Shown here: piece by piece, positions 36,317 to 52,776 of the stretch | Numbering within the stretch: the stretch's first letter is position 1 | How the letters are laid out: each line of letters opens with the position of its first letter | Assembly (NCBI GenBank): GCA_943357015.1 | Contig: CALRFZ010000001.1 | Span: forward strand, 1 to 52,776 | Length of the DNA: 52,776 bases | Reading direction: 5' to 3' | DNA from: Candidatus Staskawiczbacteria bacterium | Lineage (GTDB): Bacteria > Patescibacteriota > Minisyncoccia > Minisyncoccales > Staskawiczbacteraceae | Translations under genes and position numbers: made by a program | Notes under the pieces: model-generated | Told to the model about the DNA's origin: nothing | The model's input: only the letters and a program-made list of their open reading frames with translations | Database searches by the model: none

Positions 36317-36660
36317 TCCTAGCAAGATGAATGATTGCCCTGCTAATCCTTTATTTTTAAATGGTTGGCGGGGAGGAAAGTCCGAACACCAACTCTGTAA
36401 AAAGAGTTAAAATAATAGTGGCTAACGGCCATCCATCGTAAGATGCGAGGTGCGAACAGTAACGCCAAAACCGAAAGGTTACGGTACCCGTCAGGGTAAG
36501 TTTGGTAGAAATACCAGAATGAAACGGCTAAATCCTTATTGGGTGCAAGAACAAAGCTGAAATTATTTCAGTTAAAAGTAGTTCGCCAGAGGCAAGTAGT
36601 AATGTTTGCCCCAGATAGATAATCATATAATACAGAATTCGGCTTATAGTCTTGCTAGGA
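36317..36660 (+). ncRNA. rnpB: RNase P RNA (bacterial type)
   Basis: GGAGGAAAGTCCGAAC (P4 5' strand) and ACAGAATTCGGCTTATAG (P4 3' strand). The terminal P1 pairing is tcctagcaag (36317-36326) with cttgctagga (36651-36660). No ORF. Confidence 0.85.
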
Positions 36661-36670
36661 TACCAAAAAA

Positions 36671-48997: not shown

Positions 48998-49050
48998 ACA
49001 TTTCGTGGTCAAGCAAAACTGGCGAAACCCTAACGAAAGGAAAAACCGCC

Positions 49051-49662
49051 ATGTCTCAAGACGCCAAGCTCGTGTCTCGTATCGCCGAGTGCCTTCCTGA
49101 GATGTCCAAGGAGCAGAAACAGGGGTGGATCGAAAACCCCAAACGGCTCCAGCAGGTCCTCCAAGTCTTGGCCGAGATTCCTTCCGACCCTAAGGTCTGG
49201 AAGCGGATCACCATCGGTACGGGACTGAACACCGACGGCCTTCGTCAGGCCATGAAGGACAAGGGCATGCGTATTAGTGACTGGGCCAACGACATCCTCG
49301 GCAAACCCGCCTTCAGCGTGGCTACCGAAAAGATGGATGTGGACCTCGTCGTCGTCAGTGTCGAGGACTTGGGCTTCAAGGACGGAGCTACGCTCAAAGA
49401 CATCTACGCGGCCGCCAAAAAGCGTGGCCTCGAGCTCTGCCCAAACGAAGTCGGTCCCCAACTGCGTCTGCAGTACAAGGATCAGCCGAAAGACGAGTGG
49501 TTGCTTATCGGCATGGAGTCGTTTACCGTCTCGGACGGCGATCTCCGCGTGTTCCACGTCGCGCACGATGGCAGCGTTCTGTGGCTCTACACGTTCTATG
49601 ACTACCCGGACGGCCTCTGGCGCGGCAGCGATCGCTTCGTGTTCGTTCTCCCGCGCAAGTAG
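49051..49662 (+). CDS. DGR target protein 2 (paralog of target 1, C-terminal variable region)
   Basis: Start set at ATG 49051 (MSQDAKL), by homology of the leader and RBS with target 1. The track's 48979 start would run through the leader hairpin. 203 aa. The last 46 codons are VR2. Confidence 0.85.
   Translation: MSQDAKLVSRIAECLPEMSKEQKQGWIENPKRLQQVLQVLAEIPSDPKVWKRITIGTGLNTDGLRQAMKDKGMRISDWANDILGKPAFSVATEKMDVDLVVVSVEDLGFKDGATLKDIYAAAKKRGLELCPNEVGPQLRLQYKDQPKDEWLLIGMESFTVSDGDLRVFHVAHDGSVLWLYTFYDYPDGLWRGSDRFVFVLPRK
49522..49658 (+). repeat. DGR variable region VR2
   Basis: 137 bp collinear with the TR. I count 23 mismatches by hand, all at TR adenines. The A-free 3' tail is identical. Confidence 0.9.
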
Positions 49663-49737
49663 CTTCAGGTTGCTCTTGGTCTCTTGGATCTTCTGCCCTT
49701 TATTGGACATTTGGTTCCTTGAAACTCGGAAACAACA

Positions 49738-49782
49738 AACCCCTCAATGCAAACGGAAATTGCAAAGAGGGGTTCTTTTTTT
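49738..49782 (+). terminator. Intrinsic terminator after target 2
   Basis: aacccctc (49738-49745) pairs with gaggggtt (49767-49774), with an inner tgca/tgca pairing, followed by CTTTTTTT. Confidence 0.75.
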
Positions 49783-50028
49783 AAATCAATATGATAGTAT
49801 ATAAATCGGATAGTAGGCTATTATCAAGTCTGCGGTTACGGCTTCAGGCAGCCGAATTCTATATTTCAGGACTATGCAGAATCAAGGCGGTTACGGCTTC
49901 TTTGAGCGTCATACCTGATTAGTAAAAAATGAAGATACTTGGTGTAAAGCGTTAGGGTATAAAAGATACCGAATCAATTCAGCCCTGAGAGTATTCGAGG
50001 GGTGGTGGCAGGGGGAGACGCTTTATAC

Positions 50029-50165
50029 ATTACCGACTCGGACGGCGATCTCAACGTGTTCAACGTCGAACACAATGACAACGATCTGTGGCTCAACACG
50101 AACTATGACAACCCGGACAACATCTGGAACAGCAACAATCGCTTCGTGTTCGTTCTCCCGCGCAA
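50029..50165 (+). repeat. DGR template repeat (TR)
   Basis: Non-coding copy of the target C-terminus. About 40 adenines by hand count. 11 Asn codons in the VR frame (9 AAC and 2 AAT: ITDSDGDLNVFNVEHNDNDLWLNTNYDNPDNIWNSNNRFVFVLPR). It diverges from the VR flanks immediately after ...cgcgcaa (C versus G). The hairpin ctccgc/gcggag (50178-50198) follows. Confidence 0.9.
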
Positions 50166-50200
50166 CTCTCTTTATTTCTCCGCTTCAAAAGGGCGGAGTT

Positions 50201-50530
50201 TTACTTAACAGATTTAATCCAACCTCCGAGCATTTTCCCCACTTCAAGTAATTTTTCAGAAAGATTGATATATTTTTTATCGTCCAGCGATCGAATCTCC
50301 CAGGCAACCTGCAGGAAAAATTTGAGCAAGTCTAATTTAACAGAGGCACGTTTCAGAAAAATCTCTTTTTCTGCTTTATCAGAGTACCCGGCTTTTATGA
50401 CATTTTCTATGACTTCTAAAAACAAGCCATCAATTTTTTGTCCAAGGGTGTGGCGTGAATCTCTTGAGAAATTGGGCAGGATTTCATGCCACAGTTTGTA
50501 AATCAAAACCAACTTTTGGATTATGCTCAA
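50201..50530 (-). CDS. avd: Accessory variability determinant (Avd-like four-helix-bundle protein)
   Basis: 109 aa, basic and helical. IQKLVLIYKLWHEILPNFSRDSRHTLGQKIDGLFLEVIENVIKA fits the Avd pattern. It lies between the TR and the RT gene but on the opposite strand. TTG start as called, with no obvious SD, so the start is uncertain. Confidence 0.78.
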   Translation of the reverse strand: MSIIQKLVLIYKLWHEILPNFSRDSRHTLGQKIDGLFLEVIENVIKAGYSDKAEKEIFLKRASVKLDLLKFFLQVAWEIRSLDDKKYINLSEKLLEVGKMLGGWIKSVK

Positions 50531-50571
50531 ACCAAAAGGCTGGCTGGGGGGGGGTTAGAGGAAACGTTTTT

Positions 50572-51567
50572 ATGAAAATTAGACTGGACCATAAATTTGA
50601 AGATTTAATTGGTATGTTAAACCTGCTTTTGGCGTGGGAGGAGTTTATCAGGGGTAAACGAAACAAGAAAGACGTCCAAGAGTTCTATATGAACCTAATG
50701 GATAACATACTATCACTTCATTATGATTTGTCCAACAAAACATACAGCCACGGAGGATATGAGGAATTTAATATCTCCGACCCAAAGCCTAGGATTATAA
50801 ATAAAGCCAGCGTCCGGGACAGGCTTTTGCATCACGCTGTGTATAGAATATTGTATCCTTTCTTTGACCAAAAATTCATATCAGATTCTTTTTCCTGCCG
50901 TGATGAAAAAGGAACTCATAGGGCGCTTGAAAGGTTCACCTATTTTTATGGCAAAGTCAGTAGAAATAAAACAAGGACATCTTGGGTGTTAAAGTGTGAT
51001 ATTAAAAAATTCTTTCACTCAATCAGCCACCAAACACTATCAAAAATTCTCGAAGAGTGTATTCCAGACAGAGACATTATAAATCTTTTACGGGAGATAA
51101 TTATCAGTTTTAATTCAGGCAAAGCGGGTGTGGGTTTACCGCTGGGGAATTTAACCTCACAGCTTTTTGCTAACGTGTATATGAATGAGTTTGACCAATT
51201 TGTGAAGCACAAACTGAAAGTAAAATACTATATCAGATATGCGGACGATTTTGTGATTTTGTCAGAGAATAAAAGTTATTTGAACGAAATAATTCCGGCT
51301 ATCAGTAATTTTTTGCAAAATAATTTGAGCCTAACCTTGCACCCCGATAAAATCTACATTAAGACACTATATTCCGGTGTAGATTTTCTGGGGTGGGTGA
51401 ATTTCCCAAACCATAAAACTATCAGGAATCGGACAAAAAATAGGATACTAAAGCGGATTAAGGAAAACAGAAATTCAAAGACCTTGAGTTCTTATATCGG
51501 CCTACTTAAGCATGGTAATACTCGCACAGTTAAAGAAAGGGTCTTAAAATTATATGCTGAAAGTTAA
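50572..51567 (+). CDS. DGR-type reverse transcriptase
   Basis: Start set at ATG 50572 (MKIRLDH), with AGAGGA 8 nt upstream. The N-terminal region ..DPKPRIINKASVRDRLLHHAVYRILYPFFDQKFISDSFSCRDEKGTHRAL is typical of DGR RTs. The DGR-diagnostic LGNLTSQ motif is at 51142-51162 and YADD at 51238-51249. 331 aa. No maturase or endonuclease domain. Confidence 0.92.
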   Translation: MKIRLDHKFEDLIGMLNLLLAWEEFIRGKRNKKDVQEFYMNLMDNILSLHYDLSNKTYSHGGYEEFNISDPKPRIINKASVRDRLLHHAVYRILYPFFDQKFISDSFSCRDEKGTHRALERFTYFYGKVSRNKTRTSWVLKCDIKKFFHSISHQTLSKILEECIPDRDIINLLREIIISFNSGKAGVGLPLGNLTSQLFANVYMNEFDQFVKHKLKVKYYIRYADDFVILSENKSYLNEIIPAISNFLQNNLSLTLHPDKIYIKTLYSGVDFLGWVNFPNHKTIRNRTKNRILKRIKENRNSKTLSSYIGLLKHGNTRTVKERVLKLYAES

Positions 51568-51599
51568 AGATTTCTTATTTAGCCAGCTGTTGGTAACTA

Positions 51600-52776
51600 T
51601 GCTTCCCAAATCCCAATTATTAAGCTATAAGGGTGCATAACCTCACATACATCTTGGACTCTTTGAGGCCAAAATAGTATGCCGTTTTTTCACAAAATTC
51701 ATTGTAAGTACAAAGGTGTCAAAGGATTTATCACTGCCTACCAAGATGGGGTAAGATGGCAGTATATGATTACACAAAAAGCACAAAAGAAATTTAAAGC
51801 ACTCGTATTTTGGGAAAATCATGGCTTAAAGGCAACAATAGATGCCTTTGGAGTAAAAAGATCAACCTTGTTTGAGTGGCAAAGTAAATTCAATAAAGGG
51901 GGTAAAAAGCCCGAAGCTCTCAACGAAAAGAAAACTACACCCAAAACAAAAAGAAAGAGAATCTGGCCGTTTGAAATTCGTCAAAAGATCAAACAAATCC
52001 GTCGCAATCCAGTTTGCCCTAACCTTGGGCCAGAAAAGATTTTTCCTTTATTGCAGGTGTTTTGCAAAGAGCAAAACCTCATATGTCCCAGCTCTGCCAC
52101 CATCACCCGCATCATCGCCGATGACCCTGAAAAGATGCGCATATTCCCACAGCATGTATCTTATTTTGGCAAGATTAAAAAAGCCAATCGAAAAAAGGTT
52201 CTCCGCAAGCCAAAACACCTGCGCCCCGAGTATCCGGGCCACCTGATTGCCCTAGACACCATTGAAAAATTCATCGACGGCACGCGTCGCTACATTATTA
52301 CTTTTGAAGATATTTACAATCGATTTTCTTTTGCTTGGGCCACTACCAGTCATGCGTCCAAAGCCGCCGAGGAGTTTTTTGGTCTTTGTCAGAAAGCTTT
52401 TCCTTATTCGTTTAATTTTCTTTGGGTACTGACCGATAACGGTTCGGAATTTAAAAAACATTTTTCAGAAAAACTGAGAGAACTTCATTTAACTCACTAC
52501 CACACTTATCCTCGCACACCCAAAATGAATGCTCACGTGGAACGATTCAATCGCACCATTCAAGATGATTGGATTGATTGGCATATCCAAGATTTAAAAG
52601 ATCCTAATGTTTTTAACCGAGACCTAATGGATTATCTGATTTTTTACAACACCAAGCGAGTGCACTTTGCTTTCCAAAACAAACTCTCTCCAGTACAATT
52701 TATGATACAATGGCAAGAAAGCCGACCAGTTATTTTTAATCCAATCGAAAAGTCCAGAAGTGGGTGGGGTTATACA
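51600..52776 (+). mobile_element. Partial insertion sequence (IS481-like); ends not determinable
   Basis: The transposase gene is as described above. The left inverted repeat should lie in about 51570-51678, but it cannot be defined without the right end, which is outside the window. Confidence 0.5.
51679..52776 (+). CDS. IS481-like DDE (rve/integrase-core) transposase, 3'-truncated by window edge
   Basis: Not in the ORF track because there is no stop inside the window. The frame opens after TGA at 51664-51666, with the first ATG at 51679, and stays open for 366 codons to the edge. An N-terminal HTH (GVKRSTLFEWQSKF) is followed by the DDE core: ALDT..., LTDNGSEF, AHVERFNRTIQDD, YNTKRVH. Confidence 0.85.
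   Translation, partial: MPFFHKIHCKYKGVKGFITAYQDGVRWQYMITQKAQKKFKALVFWENHGLKATIDAFGVKRSTLFEWQSKFNKGGKKPEALNEKKTTPKTKRKRIWPFEIRQKIKQIRRNPVCPNLGPEKIFPLLQVFCKEQNLICPSSATITRIIADDPEKMRIFPQHVSYFGKIKKANRKKVLRKPKHLRPEYPGHLIALDTIEKFIDGTRRYIITFEDIYNRFSFAWATTSHASKAAEEFFGLCQKAFPYSFNFLWVLTDNGSEFKKHFSEKLRELHLTHYHTYPRTPKMNAHVERFNRTIQDDWIDWHIQDLKDPNVFNRDLMDYLIFYNTKRVHFAFQNKLSPVQFMIQWQESRPVIFNPIEKSRSGWGYT

Follow-up and report, generated by a model that had tools for sequence, protein, structure and literature searches.

A conserved structured leader precedes the template repeat, and a simple repeat of variable length separates avd from the reverse transcriptase gene, in inverted-avd diversity-generating retroelements related to one from Candidatus Staskawiczbacteria

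How does a diversity-generating retroelement (DGR) deliver its template RNA to its reverse transcriptase (RT) when avd, the accessory variability determinant gene, lies inverted between the template repeat (TR) and the RT gene? This question is raised by a DGR in contig CALRFZ010000001.1 (GenBank assembly GCA_943357015.1) of a Candidatus Staskawiczbacteria bacterium, of which we analysed positions 1 to 52,776 of the forward strand, referred to below as the window. An earlier note on this DNA had offered two answers: a read-through RNA that carries antisense avd as the spacer between TR and RT, or a separate TR transcript that acts in trans. Comparison with related loci favours the second answer, as far as sequence can speak to it. 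We consider it likely that this is a DGR of a known gene order, Architecture B3, whose components form three transcription modules, with a stand-alone TR RNA and a run of G residues of variable length upstream of the RT gene.

Adenine-only differences between repeats, an RT of the DGR clade, variable repeats (VRs) that lie at the 3' ends of genes and share an end resembling the initiation-of-mutagenic-homing sequence, and an Avd protein together identify the locus as a complete DGR. A 137-nt repeat occurs in three copies on the plus strand (48612-48748, 49522-49658, and 50029-50165). The third copy (50029-50165) is the TR, because every difference sits on one of its adenines: all 15 mismatches to VR1 and all 23 mismatches to VR2 fall on TR adenines, and the final 28 nt are the same in the three copies. 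VR1 and VR2 occupy the 3' ends of two target genes on the plus strand, target gene 1 (48105-48752) and its paralogue target gene 2 (49051-49662), which were recognized as open reading frames (ORFs) and from repeat families. Each VR stops 4 nt short of the stop codon of its target gene, and neither target protein had a Pfam match. The presence of two diverged VRs with changes restricted to adenines implies past mutagenic retrohoming. The RT gene (50572-51567, plus strand) starts with an ATG at 50572 behind a Shine-Dalgarno (SD)-like GAGGA at 50558-50562, and its product matches RVT_1 (E 6.9e-26). The palm domain carries LGNLTSQ, a form of the [ILV]GxxxSQ motif that we take to be the mark of DGR RTs. 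Among solved structures, the Bordetella phage bRT is the closest (8ub7_A, E 2.7e-42), and RTs of group II introns and retrons come behind it at E values of about 1e-20; an exact-match look-up of the protein returned no record.

The order of the components is TR (plus strand), a hairpin (50178-50198), avd (50201-50530, minus strand), a 41-nt gap (50531-50571), and RT (plus strand), and each of these elements lies where the earlier note had placed it. That note had called the layout non-canonical. The layout does differ from the Bordetella-phage paradigm, but the term overstates the case, since this is a named architecture found in every relative that we fetched. A search with the RT, limited to one genome per species, gave 80 loci with RT identities of 57-69%, nearly all titled Patescibacteria/Candidate Phyla Radiation (CPR) or unclassified bacterial metagenome-assembled genomes. 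Wherever the related loci include sequence upstream of RT, which is the case in 76, avd immediately precedes RT on the opposite strand. An adenine-biased TR/VR pair was found in 57 relatives, and in these the TR shares the strand of RT and is followed at once by the inverted avd; the distance from the end of TR/VR homology to the avd stop codon is only -8 to +37 nt in these relatives and the window. The TR-(avd)-RT order was named Architecture B3 by Wu et al. (2018, Nucleic Acids Res 46:11; PMC5758913), who assigned 90% of CPR DGRs to it and pointed out that components on opposite strands need at least two transcription units. In the text that we consulted, that paper deals with gene-order classes only; the words "promoter" and "spacer" are absent from it, and it contains no leader RNA, post-TR terminator, or simple repeat. 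The window has a TR, a reverse-strand avd, and RT without another accessory gene, and it agrees with B3 in order, strands, and host group (CPR/Patescibacteria), with its targets upstream on the TR strand and no difference in layout. It is thus an ordinary B3 member, and its gene order was already known. Phage-borne relatives (L201-L209), with RT identities of 45-59%, keep the inverted avd and mostly the leader described below, and in viral contigs at RT identities of 39% or less (L210-L253) the order is the canonical avd(+)-TR-RT and the leader model has no match.

The conserved RNA lies upstream of TR. The distance from VR to TR clusters at about 320-370 nt (range, 246-599 nt), and the last ~220 nt of this interval are conserved non-coding sequence. 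At its upstream edge is an extended -10 box, TGATAGTAT (49792-49800, plus strand), which conforms to a TGnTAnnAT consensus conserved in a 58-locus alignment and stands ~8 nt before a conserved start, GGAUAGUAGG. We infer that this box is the TR RNA promoter and that the RNA starts near 49807-49809. The structured 5' leader (49808-50028, plus strand) contains, in order, a short helix P0 (49816-18:49851-53) and hairpins H1 (49828-49849) and H2 (49882-49905), each hairpin of 9-10 bp; an A-tract (49924-29); a strand P, AAAUGAAGA (49927-49935); the sequence UACUUGG (49936-42), which holds invariant positions; and a 12-bp helix H3 (49942-53:50017-28) that encloses H4 (49956-60:49966-70) and H5 (49982-86:49999-50003), and whose last base directly precedes TR. 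H1 and H2 are near-duplicates, each with a YAMG tetraloop, most commonly UACG, and a conserved C.U mismatch.

This fold is supported by covariation. RNAalifold applied to 58 sequences predicted 41 pairs, 38 of which show compensatory changes. When 44 pairs in 8 leader helices were counted across the alignment, 94.0% of cells were paired, compared to 70.1% in shuffled alignments (a level reached in none of 500 shuffles) and 39-51% when the pairing was slid; cells with double changes numbered 665 compared to 200, and the covariation score was 0.74 compared to 0.285. A covariance model, R1, built on the 3' half of the leader (110 positions) had a single confident match in the window, at 49923-50032 (96.6 bits, E 1.5e-19). 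At the gathering cut-off, Rfam models found only RNase P and tRNAs in the whole window, and at E<=5 only weak chance matches to miRNA and snoRNA families in 47700-51800, so that the leader corresponds to no Rfam family. All of the strong covariation lies upstream of TR, and the earlier note had looked downstream.

The leader also pairs across TR. Strand P' (UCUUUAUUU, 50169-50177, plus strand), the 9 nt that adjoin the post-TR hairpin, is complementary to P, and the P:P' helix makes H3 and TR a closed loop. Lineages with other P sequences have matching P' sequences: AAAUAAAG/CUUUAUUU, AACGAAGA/UCUUCGUU, AUGAGGA/UCCUUAU, AAAUAACA/UGUUAUUU, AAGUGAAGA/UCUUCACUU, and CAUACGA/UCGUAUG. Duplexes formed by cognate P and P' strands are more stable than non-cognate ones (-8.3 versus -6.1 kcal/mol, p<=1e-4). 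The same was true of 14-nt windows anchored blind to pairing (-5.2 versus -2.9, p=5e-5); for 22 of the 41 variant leaders, the true partner was among the 5 best of 52. When the window RNA 49808-50206 was folded by itself, P:P', H3, H4, H5, and the hairpin were recovered, and the A-tract paired with the terminal U-tract. No cognate pairing signal was found between the 3' end of TR and the leader, the analogue of the TR:Sp pairing of the phage element.

Immediately downstream, the TR is followed by a stem-loop, CTCCGC-TTCAAAAGG-GCGGAG plus TTTT (50178-50202, plus strand), which resembles a terminator and would mark the end of the TR RNA. It has 8 bp and a 5-nt loop, starts 12 nt after TR, is followed by TTTTAC, and is the best terminator-like site on the plus strand. 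A hairpin with a T-tract right after TR occurs in 54 of 58 loci on the plus strand, compared to 5 of 58 on the minus strand of that stretch, and its stems vary in sequence between loci. Relative to the hairpin, the avd stop codon is internal in 30 loci, 5' in 20, and 3' in only 4, including the window. In most relatives, L013, L014, L023, and L027 among them, the lysine-rich C-terminal tail of Avd (such as K-Q/K-N-S-P) is the reverse complement of the 3' arm of the terminator and its T-tract. Thus, one stretch of DNA corresponds to the Avd protein tail on one strand and the RNA 3' end on the other.

Leader, TR, and terminator also occur as a unit of their own. A blind metagenome search with a 20-nt leader motif gave 120 loci, 100 of which were searched with model R1; 94 matched, most at 60-116 bits, and 4 of the 5 weakest matches were below 50 bits. 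Among metagenome loci with more than 800 nt of downstream sequence, an inverted avd followed in 68 of 92, and RT came next in 60 of 80. Five of the loci that lack avd are chance occurrences of the 20-mer, and a few are decayed elements. About 12 are VR-leader-TR-terminator units that have neither avd nor RT, although their contigs run on for several kb (7-10 kb). Leader-TR-terminator units with no avd or RT on the contig, several of them with an upstream VR, were seen in L100, L107, L117, L126, L127, L161, L164, L176, and L188; L126 has two leader-TR units ~1.9 kb apart. L129, L147, and L169 look decayed, with a truncated or deleted TR.

The 41-nt gap between avd and RT contains a G9 homopolymer (50546-50554), and no other G/C run of 7 or more exists in the 52.8-kb window. 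Across 77 loci, this gap has a median length of 37 nt and contains a G-run of 7-14 in 69; in 7 more it contains another simple repeat, namely (GT)n, (GA)n, (CT)n, or (TGGCGGC)6. By comparison, 559 kb of flanking DNA has just 3 G/C runs of at least 8. A repeat between avd and RT is thus conserved as a repeat and not in sequence, and phage-borne B3 elements have no simple repeat at this place. The length of the run varies between close relatives. In a near-identical contig pair (97.5% identity over 1.5 kb), G10 versus G9 is the sole indel, and two more pairs with identical flanks differ as G10 versus G8 and G9 versus G7, giving three independent pairs in all; the gap is unchanged in near-identical pairs that lack a repeat. 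These are assembly-level data from relatives only, because a metagenome scan for G-run variants with the window's own flanks found none.

The repeat has a defined setting in a 28-locus subfamily, in which a -35-like cTGGCA, a 16-22-nt spacer that holds the run, TAnnnT, and a start codon follow one another, with the start codon 7 nt after TAnnnT in 25 of the 28 loci (ATG in 24, GTG in 1). The cTGGCA box is also the reverse complement of the avd start, TTGCCAG. By its sequence, this arrangement is a putative promoter for a leaderless RT mRNA, and the run determines the spacing of its boxes. In the window itself, G9 is separated by 3 nt from the SD-like GAGGA, such that the run is followed by TTAGAGGAA, 9 nt, and the ATG. 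In 28 of 69 loci, extended -10 sites peak between +30 and +39 of RT on the minus strand; this peak was considered as an avd promoter and rejected as a by-product of the conserved RT peptide D-I-I-S, whose codons (GATATCAT read backwards) explain it; the peak is absent from the window.

Promoters controlled by a repeat that sets the spacing between -35 and -10 boxes include those of meningococcal (Neisseria) porA and opc, Bordetella fim, and the divergent Haemophilus hifA/hifB genes. The avd-RT gap resembles these phase-variable promoters in that divergent genes are separated by a homopolymer or dinucleotide repeat, which is placed between -35-like and -10-like boxes in the subfamily and varies in length between near-identical genomes. 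It differs in that the hosts are uncultured CPR bacteria, the genes are those of a mutagenic retroelement and not of a surface structure, and the boxes are not assignable in the window.

From these observations we propose the following arrangement. The first module would consist of the two target genes, each ending in a VR. The second would be a TR RNA gene of ~400 nt (~49808-50202, plus strand) with its own extended -10 promoter, the 220-nt leader, TR, the pairing strand, and the hairpin; its RNA would end by the hairpin and U-tract at the 3' end of the convergent avd, and in most relatives within avd. The third module would be the divergent avd and RT genes, whose two proteins would both act on the TR RNA in trans. 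The elements that hold the template, stop cDNA synthesis, and prime it would have shifted from the 3' to the 5' side of TR. H3, which abuts the first TR base, may serve as the "cPRT stop" duplex, and P:P' as the template:primer duplex, in which case cDNA synthesis would begin from a leader nucleotide near 49935-49938, beside the conserved UAC-UUGG. Avd may be bound by H1 and H2 and/or by the post-TR hairpin. Finally, the G9 run would be hypermutable and would most likely make expression of RT, and perhaps of avd, switch or vary in level between cells.

Several points weigh against this arrangement. The promoter, the RNA 3' end, and trans action are predictions from sequence signals. The minimum free energy of the whole RNA is unremarkable (z -1.55). 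A column-wise count of P:P' pairs on an ungapped, anchor-only alignment was marginal (71.5% versus 69.1% paired; 5-6/500 shuffles), because lineages differ in register and both strands are rich in A and U, and we therefore relied on the register-free comparison of cognate and non-cognate strands given above. The remaining points concern the hairpin, the repeat, and the possibility of read-through, and each is best weighed together with the alternative that it favours.

A putative stem-loop and up- and downstream duplexes around TR have been described in many DGRs, including those of CPR bacteria, and of 278 DGRs with avd, 207 have a putative Avd-binding stem-loop, commonly of 9 bp, shortly after TR (Handa et al., 10.1101/2023.10.23.563531). 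The hairpin in the window, with its 8 bp and its position 12 nt after TR, may thus be an Avd-binding element instead of, or besides, a terminator. We regard it as possible, though rather unlikely, that it is the counterpart of the Avd-binding stem-loop of the Bordetella phage and not a terminator, and that the RNA continues downstream. A hairpin that served purely to bind protein would not need the T-tract that is kept in 54 of 58 loci. Moreover, the post-TR loops are variable, at 3-22 nt and of varied sequence, and are not tetraloops; tetraloops and a conserved mismatch are features of the leader hairpins H1 and H2. The two roles are compatible with each other.

For the repeat, homopolymer length differences between assemblies could partly be sequencing or assembly error. 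In addition, no promoter-like site for RT or avd was found in or near the 41-nt gap of the window; the earlier note had recommended a promoter search on both strands of 50531-50571, and it yielded none. The subfamily to which the window belongs has no clear -10 box, so that the repeat may act in the 5' untranslated region (UTR) here. The avd-RT repeat could therefore be a fixed structural or regulatory element, either a homopurine/non-B DNA spacer or a 5'-UTR element, and not a phase switch. The substitutes (GA)n, (CT)n, and (GT)n likewise form non-B DNA, and the window run lies 3 nt before the SD-like GAGGA and not beside a clear -10 box. Nevertheless, we find a fixed element the doubtful choice. 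All three G-run pairs differ, two of them by 2 nt, between flanks that are 97-100% identical, and repeat-less pairs are constant. What the substitutes have in common is repetitiveness, not sequence, and the run sets a -35/-10-like spacing of 16-22 nt in 28 loci, which is the classical arrangement of a repeat-controlled promoter.

The T-tract after the window hairpin is short, at just 4 T, so that read-through into antisense avd and RT is possible. In its full form, the read-through alternative holds that a single plus-strand transcript runs from TR through antisense avd to RT, with antisense avd as the spacer that binds RT-Avd and primes cDNA in cis. The spacer of the Bordetella phage does lie 3' of TR, and a phage-like 140-nt spacer would here be possible only as antisense avd, because the gap from TR to the avd stop codon is so short. 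The failure to find an RT promoter in the 41-nt gap also speaks for read-through, as do the phage-borne B3 elements, in which the start codons of avd and RT are 0-4 nt apart (CATATG in L209), such that RT transcription must begin in or upstream of avd unless the mRNA is leaderless. On the plus strand of 50166-50571, which the earlier note had proposed to compare between related loci, the strand and hairpin just after TR are kept in relatives, but antisense avd shows no conservation beyond that of its protein. Fourfold degenerate sites of avd carry only ~0.02-0.2 bits along the whole gene, including the codons that adjoin TR, and when antisense avd was paired with the leader, the 3' end of TR, or the 40 nt that precede TR, cognate partners had no advantage (p 0.18-0.58). 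The hairpin and T-tract stand between TR and avd in 54 of 58 loci, leader-TR-terminator units occur without avd or RT, and the strong covariation is confined to the region upstream of TR. These results argue against antisense avd as a functional spacer, and we judge read-through of this kind improbable; they favour the other answer of the earlier note, a probable separate TR transcript that would act in trans.

The identity of avd itself is secure. The minus-strand ORF encodes 109 aa from a TTG start, is convergent with the TR RNA and divergent from RT, and matches Pfam bAvd (PF22296) at E 1.8e-18 and 67.4 bits (cut-off, 40); on the NCBIfam DivGenRetAVD equivalog model, it scores 79.5 bits, 0.5 bit below the cut-off of 80. 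In a codon alignment of 76 sequences (the window and 75 relatives), Y11, W14, W77, G98, and W104 are invariant and fourfold sites are free, and the gene is thus under protein-type constraint. A PDB search with the avd sequence gave no meaningful match. The idea that this ORF is spurious, or that the true Avd is the plus-strand four-helix-bundle ORF at 45624-45977, whose clan Avd is related to, has next to nothing left to stand on, since the latter ORF, the sole plus-strand candidate, matches PF05635 and TIGR02436 and reaches only 17.8 bits against the Avd cut-off of 80, whereas the minus-strand ORF matches bAvd, is syntenic in 76 of 76 relatives, and evolves like a protein. We rejected the ORF at 45624-45977 as an Avd and place it in the family of 23S rRNA intervening-sequence proteins.

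The arrangement proposed here can be compared with the one DGR RNA known in mechanistic detail. The RNA of the Bordetella phage BPP-1 consists of the avd 3' end, TR, and a 140-nt spacer, with the holding, stop, and priming elements 3' of TR (Handa et al., 2018, NAR; 10.1101/2023.10.23.563531; PDB 8ub7-8ube). The B3 element shares with it the homologous RT, the Avd partner, a duplex right before TR (H3 here), a short strand that pairs next to where TR ends (P:P'), stem-loops of 9-11 bp with UNCG-type tetraloops, and a stem-loop just 3' of TR, and its two UACG-capped leader hairpins resemble the Avd-binding stem-loop of the phage. An upstream duplex and a paired strand beside the TR 3' end are thus both present, and both partner strands come from the 5' leader. 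The differences are in placement. Nearly all of the phage elements are 3' of TR and its stop duplex joins upstream to downstream sequence, whereas the covarying elements here are 5' of TR and H3 lies wholly within the leader. In place of a 3' spacer of the BPP-1 type, only 9 nt and the hairpin are conserved after TR; P binds these 9 nt and not TR itself, and avd is on the other strand. Tentatively, and at somewhat less than an even chance, we suggest that the B3 RNA may be a circular permutation of the phage RNA, in which the leader would bind RT-Avd, stop synthesis at the 5' edge of TR through H3, and, by way of the P:P' helix, prime it in cis from an adenosine next to the invariant UAC-UUGG. 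The TR gene would then be free-standing and trans-acting, open to duplication or scattering, and a G-run in the RT promoter region would make targeted hypermutation a stochastic trait, either on/off or graded.

A similar topology exists in retrons. The msr-msd RNA of a retron is stand-alone and structured, its priming nucleotide is 5' of the template, and complementary flanks loop the template. The likeness to the B3 leader is one of topology only, by analogy: retrons have an RT of another clade, no Avd, a product (msDNA, multicopy single-stranded DNA) that is not a homing cDNA, and no adenine mutagenesis, and we found no sequence or Rfam similarity between retron RNA and the leader.

The survey of Handa et al. 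(10.1101/2023.10.23.563531) took in, for the Wu et al. set with its CPR members, the 40 nt before TR and the 100 nt after it, which puts the leader out of view and, for B3 elements, reads antisense avd instead. In a 2022 review, too, the structured RNA is assigned to "the trailing RNA sequence." Our search of the literature turned up no account of the leader, the P:P' helix, the overlap of terminator and avd, or the avd-RT simple repeat; it did not cover the main paper on CPR DGRs (Paul et al., 2017), such that an earlier description is not fully excluded. Nothing relevant was found on DGRs together with homopolymers, poly-G, or phase variation.

Further features surround these modules. Target gene 2 is followed by a long hairpin, CCCCTC..GAGGGG plus a T-run (49740-49782, plus strand), which reads as its terminator; relatives have hairpins of other sequence at the matching position. 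The ~90 nt between each VR stop and the next hairpin (48753-48830 and 49663-49730) contain several CTTGG/CTTAG/CTTTG-like motifs, mostly spaced by 8 nt and at the same position in L001-L080. CTTGG is 9.7-fold enriched in these post-VR stretches compared to the flanks, and the leader too has an invariant CUUGG (49938-49942). These motifs may form an array for target-site recognition or protein binding. A similar inverted repeat, AGTCACAGC...GCTGTGACT, is found ~55 nt before the start codons of both targets (48000-48049 and 48944-49003), followed by a conserved stretch that reaches the ATG; common to both paralogues, it could be an operator or a 5'-UTR hairpin.

To the left of the cassette (45469-47733) are three tRNA genes and a large serine recombinase gene (46414-47733, minus strand), and to the right (51679-52776) an rve-type transposase gene runs off the window end. 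The target genes have a G+C content of 53-57% compared to 35-42% around them, and the DGR cassette may lie on a mobile island. The 23S rRNA intervening-sequence protein gene at 45624-45977 (plus strand; PF05635, E 9e-28) is located between two tRNA-Met genes. A class A bacterial RNase P RNA (36319-36662, plus strand; 125.9 bits) is consistent with a chromosomal context.

CPR bacteria hold a large share of known DGRs, yet the mechanistic model of DGRs derives from a single phage element, whose functional RNA is 3' of the template. If the arrangement proposed here is correct, searches downstream of TR for DGR RNA elements would be misplaced for the B3 clade, TR RNAs could be annotated by covariance model as genes of their own, and orphan or tandem TR units could be read as modules served in trans. 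The B3 RNA would also provide a second, independently evolved RNA scaffold for engineering compact DGRs. Finally, a mutable repeat on RT would add bet-hedging at the population level to the diversification of proteins, and the G-run would be a simple metagenome read-out of the likely on or off state of the DGR.

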